From: Dehalococcoidia bacterium
Lineage (GTDB): Bacteria > Chloroflexota > Dehalococcoidia > Bin125
Assembly: GCA_963555985.3 (NCBI GenBank)
Contig: CAUVXV020000004.1
Location: forward strand, 1 to 13,644
DNA: 13,644 nt
Direction of reading: 5' to 3'
Shown: positions 43 through 9,292 of the stretch, in pieces
Position numbering within the stretch: the first letter of the stretch is position 1
Layout: each line of letters opens with the position of its first letter
Position numbers and translations under genes: made by a program
The notes under the pieces: model-generated
The model's input: the letters and a program-made list of their open reading frames with translations, nothing else
Databases searched by the model: none
What the model was told of the DNA's origin: nothing

Positions 43-259
43 GAGATTGATGCATAACTCTCTCCGCCGTCATTCCCGCAAACGGAGGCCTTTGCAAAAC
101 TCCCATTTCCGTCATTCCCGCGAACGGAGGCCTTTGCAAAACCCCTATATCCGTCATTCCCGCGAACGCGGGAATCCATGCGGCGCCTCGAGTGGCATAT
201 GAATTCCCATCTGCGAGGGAATGACGAGCTCAGCCGATCGCGGGTTATGCATCTCCCCC
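43..259. mobile_element. MITE-like element copy 1 (type A ends) carrying two 42-bp type B left-end units; right terminus degenerate
   Basis: Left end GAGATTGATGCATAAC (43-58), right end GGGTTATGCATC (242-253) then degenerate. Core 152-253 is nearly identical to copy 5757-5889. 217 bp minus 2x42 = 133 bp. Flanks AAGCG (38-42) and CAGCG (260-264). Confidence 0.75.
68..177 (+). repeat. 42-bp tandem repeat (CGTCATTCCCG-N6-GAGGCCTTTGCAAAA-N10), two units then a complete hairpin
   Basis: Units start at 68, 110 and 152; GAGGCCTTTGCAAAA at 85-99 and 127-141; hairpin ATTCCCGC-GAAC-GCGGGAAT at the third start. Confidence 0.9.
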
Positions 260-1729: not shown

Positions 1730-2085
1730 GAGACTGATGCATAACTCCCGCCGCCGCCATTCCCGCGTTCGGAGGCCTTTGCAAAATCTCCATCTCCGTC
1801 ATTCCCGCGCAGGGAGGCCGTTGCAAAACTCCCATTTCCGTCATTCCCGCGTTCGGAGGCCTTTGCAGAACCCCCATATCCGTCATTCCCGCGCACGCGG
1901 GAATCCATGCGGCGTATCGAGCGAGACGTGGATTCTCACGTTCGCAAGAATGACGAAACGCTCAGATCGAGGATTCTGCAAAGGCCTCCGTTCGCGGGAA
2001 TCCAGTCTCCCTATCTGCTCAGCACTGGGTGCCTCGTTGAGTCGGAATGGCGGAAATGCGGCATCATGGGTTATGCATTGGTCTC
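1730..2085. mobile_element. MITE-like element copy 2 (type A ends, TAGAA duplication) with nested type B insertions
   Basis: TIRs GAGACTGATGCATAAC (1730-1745) and GTTATGCATTGGTCTC (2070-2085), 14/16. TAGAA at 1725-1729 and 2086-2090. Type B left ends at 1772, 1814 and 1856 (42-bp period). Removing 1772-1994 leaves 133 bp. Confidence 0.9.
1856..1988. mobile_element. Nested complete type B MITE, 133 bp
   Basis: Perfect 15-bp TIR GAGGCCTTTGCAGAA / TTCTGCAAAGGCCTC. CGTTCG at 1850-1855 and 1989-1994. Excision restores the hairpin ATTCCCGC-GTTC-GCGGGAAT. Confidence 0.9.
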
Positions 2086-3759: not shown

Positions 3760-3833
3760 TGGTCCCCCCGGGAGGATTCGAACCTCCGCGCGCGGTTTAG
3801 GAAACCGGTGCTCTCTCCCTGAGCTACGGGGGG
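3760..3833 (-). tRNA. tRNA-Arg (anticodon CCT), 74 nt, CCA encoded
   Basis: Reverse complement folds CCCCCCG TA GCTC AGGGAGA GAGC A CCGGT TTCCTAA ACCGC GCGC GGAGG TTCGAAT CCTCC CGGGGGG A CCA. Confidence 0.95.
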
Positions 3834-4224: not shown

Positions 4225-5706
4225 ATGAACCACCGCTTGCTGCTCCTGTCAGCGGGAACGCTGCTCACTGCCGTTGTCGTCGCTGCGACTCTGATCAGCG
4301 GTCTGATCCCGCTCGATTTCGCCGTCTCCGACAAGCACGGCGACAGCCAAATCGACATGCGCGTACAAGCCCGGCAAACGGAGAGCGGTCGAGTCGAGGT
4401 GCGGGCCCAATCCAGCGCCGGCAGCGGCGAATGGATCACTCACACGCCCGAGGCCCGCTTCCTCCCCGCCGAACCCCAGCCCGGCAGCTGGTACTCCAGC
4501 AATTCGTTCGCGGTGAGCGCCCCCGCTGCGGCGCCGGACAGCTCCGACGAAGCGCGCTACACCCAGTCCTTCGTCGAGCAGGCGATCGACTACTACGAAC
4601 ATCACGGCCGTGCGGCGACGATCGAGTACTACAGCACCCCCGGCAGCGCCGAGGGGCAGTGGTACATGTTCATCATCGATGAAGCGGATGTCATCATCGC
4701 CCATCAAAATCCGGATCTGATCGGAGCCCACGCCGACGACGTCAACGGCCCCGACGGCTACCCGGCCGGGCGCATGGTCGTCGCCTCCGCCACTGAGGAC
4801 GGCGCCTGGGTCGATTACCAGTTCACCAATCTCGCCAGCGGAGAAGCCGAGATCAAGCACTCCTGGGTCATCATCCACGACGGGCTGATCTTCGGTTCCG
4901 GCTGGTACGAAGAAGCGCCGTCGAAGATCCACGCGCCGGGCGCGTTCACACAGTCCTACGTGGCGCGAGCGCTCGAGCTGTACCGCGTGCTGGGCCGTGA
5001 GGCGACCCTCGAGTACTACAGCACGCCGGAAAGCGCCGACGGCCAGTGGTACATGTTCATCCACACGACCGAGGGCACGCGCGTCGCGCACGCCCACCGC
5101 GCGAACCGCCCCGGCTGGCTGGGCAGCAACGTCGGCGTGGGCGGCATCGACGTCACCGGCTACAACTACGGCCAGGACATGCTCACCATCGAGGATCGCG
5201 GCTGGGTCGCCTACGTCTTCGTCAACCCCGCCGACCAAGACCAGTACCAGCGCAAGCACAGCTGGATCGTCACCCACGACGGCCTCCAGTTCGGCTCCGG
5301 TTGGTACGACCGCCACTACGACCTTGCGGGCGAAGATCCGGCCGGCTACTCGAAGTTGCTCGTCCAGCAGGCGATTGACCTGTACGACGCCGAGGGACGC
5401 CAAGCGGCGCTCGACTACTACAGCTCGCTCGAGAGTGTGGACGGCGAGTGGTATGTGATCATCATCCACCCCGACGGCACGCGGCTGGCGCATCCCTTCC
5501 TGCCGCTGGGCGAGAACATTCTCGACAGCGGCCCCGACATCACCGGCTACGACTTCCGCCCGGACATCGTCGCGGTCGAAGACCGCGATTGGGTGAGCTA
5601 CGTGTTCGAGAATCCAGACACCGGAGAGCAGAACCAGAAGCACACCTGGATCGTGCGCCACGACGGACTGCTCTTCGCCGCCGGCTGGTACGAGAGGATT
5701 GAGTAG
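4225..5706 (+). CDS. Exported or membrane-anchored protein with three tandem Cache-like domains
   Basis: N-terminal hydrophobic helix, then three repeats of VxxAxxxY...G.W.Y.(F/I)I...AH...WVxYxFxN...KH(S/T)W...HDGLxFxxGWY starting near 4546, 4936 and 5338. Confidence 0.85.
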   Translation: MNHRLLLLSAGTLLTAVVVAATLISGLIPLDFAVSDKHGDSQIDMRVQARQTESGRVEVRAQSSAGSGEWITHTPEARFLPAEPQPGSWYSSNSFAVSAPAAAPDSSDEARYTQSFVEQAIDYYEHHGRAATIEYYSTPGSAEGQWYMFIIDEADVIIAHQNPDLIGAHADDVNGPDGYPAGRMVVASATEDGAWVDYQFTNLASGEAEIKHSWVIIHDGLIFGSGWYEEAPSKIHAPGAFTQSYVARALELYRVLGREATLEYYSTPESADGQWYMFIHTTEGTRVAHAHRANRPGWLGSNVGVGGIDVTGYNYGQDMLTIEDRGWVAYVFVNPADQDQYQRKHSWIVTHDGLQFGSGWYDRHYDLAGEDPAGYSKLLVQQAIDLYDAEGRQAALDYYSSLESVDGEWYVIIIHPDGTRLAHPFLPLGENILDSGPDITGYDFRPDIVAVEDRDWVSYVFENPDTGEQNQKHTWIVRHDGLLFAAGWYERIE

Positions 5707-5756
5707 GACGGCAATAACGGCAGGCAGGTCGCAGGCCGAGATCCGTTCCCCTCCTA

Positions 5757-5889
5757 GAGACCGATGCATAACCCTTGTTTCGTCATTCCCGCGAAAGCGG
5801 GAATCCATGTGGTGCCTCGAGTGGCGTCTGGACCCCCATCTGCGAGGGAATGACGAGCTCAGCCGATCGCGGGGTTATGCATCGGTCCC
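5757..5889. mobile_element. MITE-like element copy 3, simple 133-bp unit (type A ends, TCCTA duplication)
   Basis: TIRs GAGACCGATGCATAACCC / GGGTTATGCATCGGTCCC (17/18). TCCTA at 5752-5756 and 5890-5894. Internal hairpin ATTCCCGC-GAAA-GCGGGAAT. Lies between convergent genes. Confidence 0.92.
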
Positions 5890-5897
5890 TCCTACCC

Positions 5898-7597: not shown

Positions 7598-7693
7598 CGT
7601 CATACCCGCGCTTGCCGCGGGTATCTCGCTGTTGTCTGCACGGTCGTCGCTCGCGCGGCAATGACGGAGCACGTCGGCTATTGCAAAGCTCTC
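7598..7693. repeat. Degenerate member of the hairpin MITE family
   Basis: CGTC-ATACCCGCG-CTTGC-CGCGGGTAT hairpin, CAATGACG motif, and type B-like right end TATTGCAAAGCTCTC (7679-7693). No clear left end. Confidence 0.6.
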
Positions 7694-8869: not shown

Positions 8870-8889
8870 GCAGAACCACTCCCAAAATT

Positions 8890-8961
8890 CCCCTCTCCCC
8901 CCCTTGCGGGGGGAGATGTCCCGTAGAGCCTGCCCCCGCGAAGGCGGGGGGACAGAGGGGG
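8890..8961. repeat. Second REP-like palindromic family, copy 2
   Basis: Same 26-bp hairpin plus GCCTGCCCCCGCGAAGGCGGGGG and CAGAGGGGG. Starts about 20 bp after the HTH gene stop, so it may also act as a terminator. Confidence 0.85.
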
Positions 8962-8994
8962 TCCGCACGCCTCTTCGGGAAGTCCGCACCCCAC

Positions 8995-9292
8995 CGTCAT
9001 TCCCGCGCCGGGAGACCGTTGCAAAATCCCCATATCCGTCATTCCCGCGAACGCGGGAATCCACGTCCCACTCGATACGCCGCATGGATTCCCGCCTGCG
9101 GAGGCTTTTGCAAAACTCCCATTTCCGTCATTCCAGGCTTGACCTGGAATCTCGTTCGGAGTTCGGTCTATCGGGTCAGGCGAGATTCCAGCTTTCGCTG
9201 GAATGACGAGAGCAGCGGGAATGCCAATTTGCAAAGGCCTCCCTGCGCGGGAATGACGAAACCAACCGATCGCGAAGCGATGTATCAACCTC
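8995..9292. mobile_element. Composite MITE cluster 4: half hairpin, element 9012-9292 and a nested type B copy
   Basis: Left end GAGACCGTTGCAAAA (9012-9026); degenerate type A-like right end GCGATGTATCAACCTC (9277-9292) at the homologous position. Removing the nested copy plus one duplication leaves 134 bp. Confidence 0.75.
9101..9241. mobile_element. Nested complete type B MITE, 141 bp, variant hairpins
   Basis: GAGGCTTTTGCAAA / TTTGCAAAGGCCTC ends. CCTGCG at 9095-9100 and 9242-9247. Excision restores GGATTCCCGC-CTGC-GCGGGAATGAC. Confidence 0.88.

Follow-up and report, generated by a model that had tools for sequence, protein, structure and literature searches.

The window analysed in this study, a stretch of 13,644 nucleotides which constitutes contig C5 of an 11-contig, 3.33-Mb assembly (65% G+C) of a Dehalococcoidia bacterium, carries several short elements with inverted repeats at their ends, some of which lie within each other and within DNA hairpins (Table 1). 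Type B elements (ends GAGRCCKTTGCAAAA) are small, have no coding capacity and form families of 133, 141 and 164 bp. Type A elements, represented by the outer element 1730-2085 and the simple copy 5757-5889, have the ends GAGACYGATGCATAAC, a variant of the B end. The two B elements of the window, B1 (133 bp) and B2 (141 bp), both with ends of the form GAGGCYTTTGCARAA, are situated between the arms of the hairpin ATTCCCGC-N4-GCGGGAAT, whose centre is directly repeated on each side. Their identical position in the hairpin and the duplications CGTTCG and CCTGCG, recognised in a preliminary description of this DNA, can be read directly in the sequence. We consider it likely that the B elements are non-autonomous miniature inverted-repeat transposable elements (MITEs), moved in trans by DDE transposases of the IS5 family of insertion sequences (IS; domains DUF772 and DDE_Tnp_1) into hairpins that the MITEs themselves carry, that the stacked arrays of their ends are secondary, and that the family is by now probably immobile in this genome.

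The largest contig of the assembly, C1 (3.15 Mb), contains a second version of the window: C5 aligns to C1 1355357-1368442 with 97.6-98.1% identity. All ten small contigs (C2-C11) are alternative versions of C1 regions (95-99% identical). Judged from this overlap, the assembly (completeness 96.4%, contamination estimate 7.5%) is a mixture of two close strains, so that counts of repeats which include every contig come out too high. For this reason the genome-wide counts of ends and hairpins given below refer to C1 only, so that strain copies are not counted twice. The window is also present in four public read runs of one study, as short-read contigs broken at every repeat (e.g. at 215, 1850/1940, 8913 and 9199); no such contig spans an element, and the joints connect different repeat copies.

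Table 1. Repeat elements and related features of the window
Feature	Position	Strand	Description
Composite element	43..254	+	Type A left end, then two B left units in a stack (85-126, 127-168), then the interior and right end of type A; C1 homologue is array 4
Type A' host element	1730..2085	+	Ends GAGACTGATGCATAAC / GTTATGCATTGGTCTC; 5-bp direct repeat TAGAA at 1725-1729 and 2086-2090; non-hairpin site
B1 complex	1772..1988	+	Three stacked left units starting at 1772, 1814 and 1856, then one interior and one right end; C1 homologue is array 5
Innermost B1 unit, 133 bp (limits of the preliminary description)	1856..1988	+	Between ATTCCCG+CGTTCG (1850-1855) and CGTTCG+CGGGAAT (1989-1994)
Intact hairpin CGTCATTCCCGCGCACGCGGGAATCCATG, similar to the Neisseria Transformation Sequence (NTS), carried by B1	1881..1909	+	Begins 25 nt inside the left end; predicted 8-bp stem and 4-nt loop, -8 kcal/mol
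Simple type A element, 133 bp	5757..5889	+	Ends GAGACCGATGCATAAC / GTTATGCATCGGTCCC; 5-bp repeat TCCTA at 5752-5756 and 5890-5894; outside hairpins
Isolated B-like end, 3 mismatches	7679..7693	-	Beside a hairpin arm of the CATTGCCGCG type; likely a remnant
Host element	9012..9285	+	B-type left end, intact forward NTS hairpin 9037-9063, interrupted reverse NTS hairpin, degenerate type A right part; repeat family D9
B2 element, 141 bp	9101..9241	+	Within the reverse NTS hairpin of its host; GGATTCCCG+CCTGCG (9095-9100) and CCTGCG+CGGGAATGACG (9242-9247)

Type B elements and the hairpin that they occupy

The unit 1856-1988 is bounded by the terminal inverted repeats GAGGCCTTTGCAGAA / TTCTGCAAAGGCCTC, and equivalent ends delimit 9101-9241. 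C1 contains 132-136 B ends; among 136 of them, end positions 1-3, 5-6 and 9-15 are conserved. Copies of B1 are approximately 85-88% alike (the 1856-1988 unit shares 113-117 of its 133 positions with three other C1 copies) and those of B2 90-97%; over 15 further C1 copies match the B2 element of the window at 90-97% identity, and the homologue of this element at C1 1364504-1364644 has a perfect duplication (6/6). Simple elements of the three fixed lengths (133, 141 and 164 bp) were found at many unrelated loci. As single-stranded DNA, 1856-1988 has a predicted folding energy of -38.1 kcal/mol (z -6.5).

The flanks of the B ends point to a specific target. The motif CCYG-N6 precedes 97 of the 132 B ends recognised with up to two mismatches, compared with a fraction of 0.0115 of 200,000 random positions, and it precedes a single one of 28 type A ends. 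The left ends at 85, 127, 1772, 1814 and 9012 are all preceded by CATTCCCG-N6, as previously described. The flank consensus of 136 ends is T-Y-CCCGC-N4-G, and the CCYS block is separated from the B end by 6 nt in 99 cases, 5 nt in seven, 7 nt in two and 4 nt in two, and is absent in 26.

Duplication of the hairpin centre is not confined to the window. Of 45 pairs of nearest-neighbour ends, 11 have the same 6-nt flank in direct orientation on both sides and 23 agree at five or more positions; scored as inverted repeats, none of the same pairs is identical or reaches five matches. Permutation of the right flanks gave on average 2.2 identical pairs, and 11 were not reached in any of 10,000 permutations; with permutation restricted to loop classes the mean rose to 4.8, and 11 were reached in 13 of 10,000. 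Exact duplications of 6-7 bp flank twelve C1 elements, and one more element holds an insert of the IS30 family. Placed together, the flanks restore a single asymmetric hairpin of defined orientation (CGTCAT to one side, GGGAATCC to the other); this is predicted by insertion into a pre-existing hairpin and not by an extended inverted repeat. The view that MITE-like elements enter the hairpin and generate a second copy of its centre is supported.

The hairpin had been likened to the Neisseria repeat dRS3, of which C1 contains 83 matches. More precisely, it fits the longer NTS motif CGTCATTCCCGCGMAVGCGGGAATCYRG (PMC11893778), with 75 C1 matches at no more than one mismatch, one of them exact. According to the portion of that paper available to us, NTS extends the older dRS3 repeat and is one of the Ssn-related motifs (SRM), which are bound by small GIY-YIG nucleases that cut single-stranded DNA a few nt 5' of the motif. 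C1 contains 81 intact hairpins of the form CGTCATTCCCGC-N4-GCGGGAAT; 44 of them begin 23-34 nt inside a type A or B end, 36 at exactly 25 nt. About half of the hairpins are therefore element cargo, and each insertion adds a target. The preliminary description had ascribed two such hairpins to each element. This is correct for the host 9012-9285; in B1 at 1856-1988 the second hairpin is degenerate (TTCTCACG/CGCAAGAA), and the hairpins of B2 are of the CCAG type. Searches against Rfam identified no known RNA family on the repeats.

Two small GIY-YIG open reading frames (ORFs), each for a single-domain protein, were identified in this genome. The first encodes 96 aa (C1 84724-85011, L007:1489-1776, + strand; PF01541, 60.1 bits) and is framed by CGTCATTCCAGC...GCTGGAATC hairpins; the second, of about 95 aa, is located at C1 about 2090400-2090615 (L008, - strand). 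Both are flanked by CGTCAT-type hairpins, of different subtypes. A search against NCBIfam gave no family above the cut-off. Both loci resemble the published NTS-ssnA-NTS units, and their products would be Ssn-like. In a Dehalococcoidia genome (L011:3930-5172), two tandem ORFs for DUF559-like endonucleases lie between CTCTCCCTTGATGGGAGAG hairpins and adjoin a B-type end.

Transposases with matching ends and the length of the duplication

The preliminary description envisaged a transposase gene bounded by the same ends. None was found in this genome among pairs of B ends 400-6000 bp apart; the pairs considered as candidate autonomous copies were either unrelated or B elements with a 1.04-kb IS30-family insert. 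Full-length IS5-family elements with the same ends (1.17-1.23 kb) are present in other Dehalococcoidia-labelled genomes (G041, G042, G043, G029, G022, G008 and G023), in the same kind of hairpin and with duplications of 5-6 bp. The 1234-bp element of G042, with the ends GAGACCTTTGAAAAACTC / GAGACCTTTGATTAACTC, is inserted in the hairpin CTCCCCCC-TTGC-GGGGGGAG and has CTTGCG on both sides. The product of its 327-aa ORF (P0001) contains the domains DDE_Tnp_1 (PF01609, 5e-28) and DUF772 (PF05598, 2.4e-26) and scores 262.8 bits with the NCBIfam model NF033581, "IS5 family transposase" (cut-off 140), which supports the IS5-family part of the earlier suggestion that the ends may resemble those of the IS5-family element IS1106. 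Exact duplications in hairpins accompany two of the three full copies in G042 and two of the three in G041 (e.g. CGTCATTCCCG-CGAAGG-CGGGGACC; the third is truncated), and four of six loci of same-family or same-class genomes (G029, G022, G008, G023) have an exact duplication of 5 or 6 bp in a hairpin.

Homologues of the transposase were detected in seven of the 24 same-family genomes searched. G018 contains broken remnants only, and G024 none, though MITEs are present. A pattern scan for the ends over all species genomes returned 14 loci, of which four are real, all in Dehalococcoidia-titled genomes, and the other ten are chance matches inside genes of unrelated phyla. Among the annotated sequences seen, the closest relatives (45-46% identity) are rhizobial plasmid genes labelled "IS5 family transposase", one of which (46% identical) belongs to an element with ends GGGCCTGTTGCGTAA and a 6-bp repeat, ATCATT, at a non-hairpin site.

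Several further candidates were set aside. Copies of GAGGCCTTTGCATAA followed by an IS110-like ORF in G024, considered as a possible partner, are 1324-bp derivatives of a 163-bp MITE with an IS110-family gene inside; five GAGACCGTTGCGAAATCCCCACC ends, considered as IS termini, share their upstream sequence too and hence are parts of a larger repeat. Repeat clustering by self-BLAST merged families, and no IS catalogue was obtained from it.

Three side observations concern these repeats. Genes for IS110-family (DEDD) transposases lie inside MITEs in both G042 and G024 (L024:755-1885; L065:192-1515; L057:1501-2824), and several loci harbour such a 1324-bp composite, with a separate 9-bp duplication in each case, as though the composite moved by means of the MITE ends. 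The IS30-family element (L050:139-1181; G000 C1 about 3015338-3016380) contains a 338-aa ORF (NF033563, 217 bits, cut-off 80) and has nine nearly identical C1 copies, all at one point of the 3' arm of the hairpin (between GCGG and GAA...); a 3-bp GAA duplication fits all nine, and this is a second, independent hairpin-targeting element. In the window, 8886-8964 is a 76-bp block with the hairpins CTCCCCCC-TTGC-GGGGGGAG and GCCCCCGC-GAAG-GCGGGGGG, 100% identical at C1 1000138 and 2838030; it represents a further repeat family, of the type targeted in G042.

The apparent length of the duplication follows the target. In G024 the 163-bp MITE has duplicated 6 bp in CGTCATTCCCG-CGTAGG-CGGGAATC, 7 bp in AGTTCCCG-CTTCACG-GCGGG, 8 bp in GGTCCCCG-CTCGGGGG-CGGGGACG, of which an intact copy lies near the filled one at the same locus (L001), and 9 bp in CGTCATACCCG-CGCTTGTCG-CGGGTATC; two of its 1324-bp derivatives have 9 bp too. 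G018 and the present genome provide one 7-bp case each, with a 5-nt loop. Over 43 loci of other genomes, 20 distinct end pairs with exact flanking repeats of at least 5 nt were found: three of 5 nt, 11 of 6, two of 7, one of 8 and three of 9 nt. Arms are poor in the three 5-nt cases, which may be due to chance. The rim bases are always C...G or T...A, so the true duplication may be 1-2 nt below the apparent length.

A fixed duplication of 4 bp is typical of the IS5 group. Such a fixed, short duplication is not seen here, where apparent lengths of 5-9 bp track the target. A "loop plus two" rule was rejected, since the hairpin CATACCCGCG-CTTGT-CGCGGGTATC gives 9 bp and not 7. Joining directly after CCC(G/C) on each strand, with duplication of the whole spacer, fits all cases, and the tracking of half-site spacing by duplications of 6, 7, 8 and 9 bp points to cutting that would be anchored on the arms. 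The earlier conclusion that targeting is structure-guided since the loop varies does not follow, as the enzyme could recognise the conserved CCCGC/GCGGG arms by their sequence. From the few cases available, a variable length would not be expected of a transpososome with a fixed stagger on B-form DNA; it would be expected of an extruded hairpin or cruciform, or of two flexibly linked half-site contacts. A bolder proposal, which we regard as less likely than not, is that this IS5-family clade has no fixed stagger, its ends joining after CCC(G/C) within one arm of a hairpin or cruciform that has been extruded and whose geometry sets the 5-9 bp, and that hairpin-into-hairpin transposition of Ssn-related cargo would be a main route by which NTS/SRM hairpins multiply and mosaic arrays arise.

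Nesting, stacked arrays and alternative explanations

The first hairpin of the host 1730-2085 is interrupted by the B1 complex, which is flanked by CGTTCG at 1766-1771 and 1989-1994; its sister copy at C1 1357085-1357440 is interrupted likewise and also has the TAGAA duplication. Type A elements resemble B elements in their ends, and their own sites are not hairpins: their flanks are 5-bp repeats (TCACA in a third copy, in addition to those in Table 1). The A' subfamily to which this host belongs has eight C1 copies, one of which (C1 43887-44020) retains an uninterrupted first hairpin, CATTCCCG-CGAACG-CGGGAATCC, and is a paralogous empty site. The other seven are broken at the same position, four by a B1 right end, two by a B3-type end and one by a complex junction with a truncated B-like end. 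All seven inserts have the same orientation, so that the four with B1 possibly descend from a single composite dispersed as a whole. The preliminary description stated that excising the nested parts leaves 133 bp in copies 1 and 2 and 134 bp in copy 4. Removal of 1772-1994 from 1730-2085 does leave 133 bp; copy 1, with the boundaries used in the present analysis, gives 128 bp.

C1 contains 18 stacked arrays, which together with the cargo hairpins support the view that the elements carry their targets and nest in each other. The stacked left unit of 42 bp comprises a left end, 25 nt, the 5' hairpin arm and the spacer. Such units, including those at 1814 and 1856 and at 85 and 127, have no right end of their own, and the earlier interpretation of them as complete nested copies was not sustained. 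The right end at 1988 had been paired with the left end at 1856. From the flanks in C1 its most likely partner is the outermost left end at 1772 (C1 1357127), because in both strains this end is preceded by CGTTCG, the flank of the single right end, and the innermost unit of the complex is preceded in C1 by CGCAGG and not by CGTTCG. C1 2884161-2884440 has a length (280 bp) equal to a 133-bp B1, a 141-bp B2 and a 6-bp duplication, and its flanks are consistent with an intact nest of B2 in B1.

In the mechanism that we propose, the transposase would use ends of the form GAGRCCTTTGCA(A/T)AA and integrate them into GC-rich palindromes, joining each end, on each strand, directly 3' of a YCCC(G/C) half-site. 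Everything that lies between two half-sites (loop plus closing pairs) would be duplicated, which would give 6 bp in ATTCCCGC-N4-GCGGGAAT and 5-9 bp elsewhere. The preferred target in this genome is the NTS/SRM hairpin. Most MITE subfamilies carry one target hairpin exactly 25 nt inside one end, so each insertion adds a target, and elements accumulate inside each other and away from genes. The simplest account of the stacked 42-bp units is that they are secondary, nested co-oriented copies having presumably lost a right end through recombination between homologous interiors; in some arrays the units seem, from their sequences, to come from local duplication. Within this scheme the ends, duplications, target consensus, cargo hairpins and nesting, as well as intact partners in related genomes, are observed directly, whereas movement in trans, the deletion of right ends and the mode of target recognition are deduced. 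The earlier idea of a repetitive extragenic palindromic (REP) doublet captured between transposon ends is a guess.

Three alternatives were considered. The stacked units might be ordinary tandem duplications of a left end with half a hairpin, produced by slippage or unequal crossing-over and uninformative on self-targeting. The units have no right ends, adjacent ones agree on average at 33.4 of 42 positions (29.3 between different arrays), and in arrays 0, 13 and 17 neighbouring units are identical at 41-42 of 42, which indicates plain local duplication there. Against this stand the many arrays that combine unlike units (a type A left followed by a B left, a B1 left by a complete B2, or a type A left by a B3 right end) and therefore cannot have been produced by duplication. 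Moreover, each unit boundary falls exactly at the insertion junction, where CCCG-N6 meets GAG, and the outermost left flank equals the flank of the single right end. We regard tandem duplication as an improbable explanation of the stacks.

Somewhat less probable still is the view that the mosaic arrays were built by recombination without transposition, in the manner of Neisseria intergenic mosaic elements (NIMEs) or the bacterial interspersed mosaic elements of enterobacteria, the GAGGCCTTTGCAAAA blocks being mere spacer modules that homologous or site-specific recombination at the hairpins has shuffled from one hairpin to another. NIME arrays are indeed dynamic and possibly recombination-built, according to the available part of PMC1797815, and chimeric elements exist here, such as 43-254, which joins type A ends to B left units and is devoid of any B right end. 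The shuffled flanks of full-length IS copies in G043, and the strain difference described below, are also in keeping with it. However, complete elements are flanked by direct repeats of the variable spacer, none by inverted ones, and simple elements of fixed length recur at unrelated loci; in other genomes the same ends enclose a DDE transposase gene and are accompanied by the same duplications. It is likely that recombination remodels arrays once insertion has taken place, but it does not account for how they originated.

The least likely alternative, to which we attach very little weight, is spread of the hairpins and surrounding elements by a hairpin-binding Ssn nuclease or a REP-associated tyrosine transposase (RAYT): an IS-like NTS-ssnA-NTS architecture was remarked, and Ssn-driven spread suggested by analogy, for such units (PMC11893778, as far as its available text goes), and two small GIY-YIG ORFs are present, the 96-aa one between hairpins, but the elements end in inverted repeats accompanied by target duplications, and their boundaries do not fall at the reported Ssn cut site a few nt 5' of the hairpin, MITE families of related genomes with the same ends carry and target quite different hairpins, and the Y1 (RAYT) transposase model PF01797 had no matches in this genome (six of 14 control genomes were positive).

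Transposition of the MITEs in trans has itself to be weighed against several observations. Thirty-five of the 132 B ends are without the strict CCYG-N6 flank. Insert and target hairpin are strongly co-oriented (32 to 5 for left ends at the 5' arm, and 9 to 1 for right ends at the 3' arm), which is not predicted if the transposase reads a symmetric palindrome; alternatively, composites may have spread as units. Neighbouring units of arrays 0, 13 and 17 are nearly identical, as mentioned above. Comparison of the strain versions over approximately 190 kb, at 97-98% identity, revealed no orthologous empty allele of the kind sought after the preliminary description, and the sole difference in B elements is one extra 41-bp left unit in C1 at window position 9012; arrays therefore change without a transposase. 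In G043, none of the six full-length copies has matching duplications (one matches at 5 of 6 positions), and several copies have common flanks. Similar unmatched repeats in ISRm22 were put down to recombination between copies in the part of Tobes and Pareja (PMC1525189) available to us, and by analogy the same process may lie behind the G043 flanks. Finally, no partner transposase was found in the assembly (no matches with the P0001 protein query, best tblastn E-value 0.086, no matches to PF01609), which at 96.4% completeness does not prove its absence. Because no partner transposase was found and the strains show no polymorphism, the family looks inactive, and it is probably immobile in this genome now.

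The remaining features of the window surround the elements. The last 82 bp (1536-1617) of an amidase-like gene (300-1623) recur with 85% identity at 2418-2499, after a HigA-like antitoxin gene (2103-2400), and a short HigB-like remnant (1630-1716) lies upstream of the MITE complex. A duplicated gene end appears to enclose the toxin-antitoxin module together with these MITEs. A tRNA gene is located at 3763-3833 (- strand; Rfam RF00005, 60.1 bits). Three tandem repeats of approximately 390-400 bp, 68-87% identical, occupy coding sequence at 4581-5693, which probably encodes a repeated-domain protein.

Relation to known hairpin-targeting systems

The observation made in the window is confirmed, and it is a variant of the known theme of REP-targeting IS rather than a new kind of system. 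Members of five IS families, including IS5, have been established to target REP hairpins (Tobes and Pareja 2006, PMC1525189). According to the portion of that study available to us, ISPsy8, ISPa11, ISPpu9/10, ISRm22, ISRm19 and IS1397/ISKpn1 have a fixed insertion point in the palindrome, often at its symmetry axis, as do the elements described here, and ISRm22 likewise generates 6-bp direct repeats at the axis. In those systems the IS itself targets the hairpin, whereas in this genome transposase-less MITEs do so and carry the target hairpin with them; a duplication length that tracks half-site spacing is a further difference. MITEs are not described in the available text of that study. The IS5-family element IS1106 (ISNm1106) is associated with the same hairpin sequence family as found here, four of its seven copies in Neisseria meningitidis MC58 and seven of 14 in Z2491 being located in REP-bearing intergenic spaces. 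In the accessible text this is classed as a "type 2" regional preference (PMC1525189), unlike the single-position insertion observed here.

The link with the SsnA/NTS system (PMC11893778, Nat Commun 2025) consists in a hairpin that fits the motif and in small GIY-YIG genes which here, too, lie between such hairpins. The available text of that paper suggests that Ssn itself may have driven repeat expansion, and it mentions neither MITEs with the motif, nor insertion of IS5-family elements into it, nor Chloroflexota. NIMEs (dRS3-RS-dRS3; PMC1797815) are similar in that repeat blocks of 50-150 bp alternate with ATTCCC-N8-GGGAAT hairpins and the array length varies between strains. As described in the part of the source at hand, each NIME block has complete dRS3 copies on either side; in our elements, by contrast, a single hairpin is divided by the block, so that its arms are separated and each adjoins one copy of the duplicated spacer, and blocks bounded by complete dRS3 copies were not what we found. 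The blocks described here also differ from NIMEs in having terminal inverted repeats.

Hairpin doublets are mobile units in REPINs (REP doublets that form hairpins), and plant MITEs insert preferentially into other MITEs. Unlike the REPIN/RAYT system, the present one is without a detectable RAYT, and the mobilising enzyme would be a DDE transposase; unlike in nested plant MITEs, nesting would result from sequence-specific targeting of a motif carried by the element. A literature search of partial coverage retrieved the work on REP-targeting IS and the Ssn/NTS paper, and nothing on MITEs with NTS/SRM hairpins or on a target-defined duplication length.

For the annotation of such genomes, our results mean that 44 of the 81 intact NTS-like hairpins of C1 are transposon cargo and not free-standing regulatory or uptake signals. 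They offer a checkable mechanism by which an NTS/Ssn-related motif, characterised in 2025, would multiply inside MITEs whose transposase targets the same hairpin, thereby building mosaic arrays, and they extend REP-targeted transposition to self-nesting, non-autonomous elements of an uncultured lineage of the Chloroflexota type. A DDE transposase whose duplication length is apparently set by its target would help to reveal how the target is positioned while integration takes place. If hairpin-into-hairpin transposition is in fact a main route of NTS/SRM multiplication, it would give a testable origin for NIME-like arrays elsewhere, including those of Neisseria.

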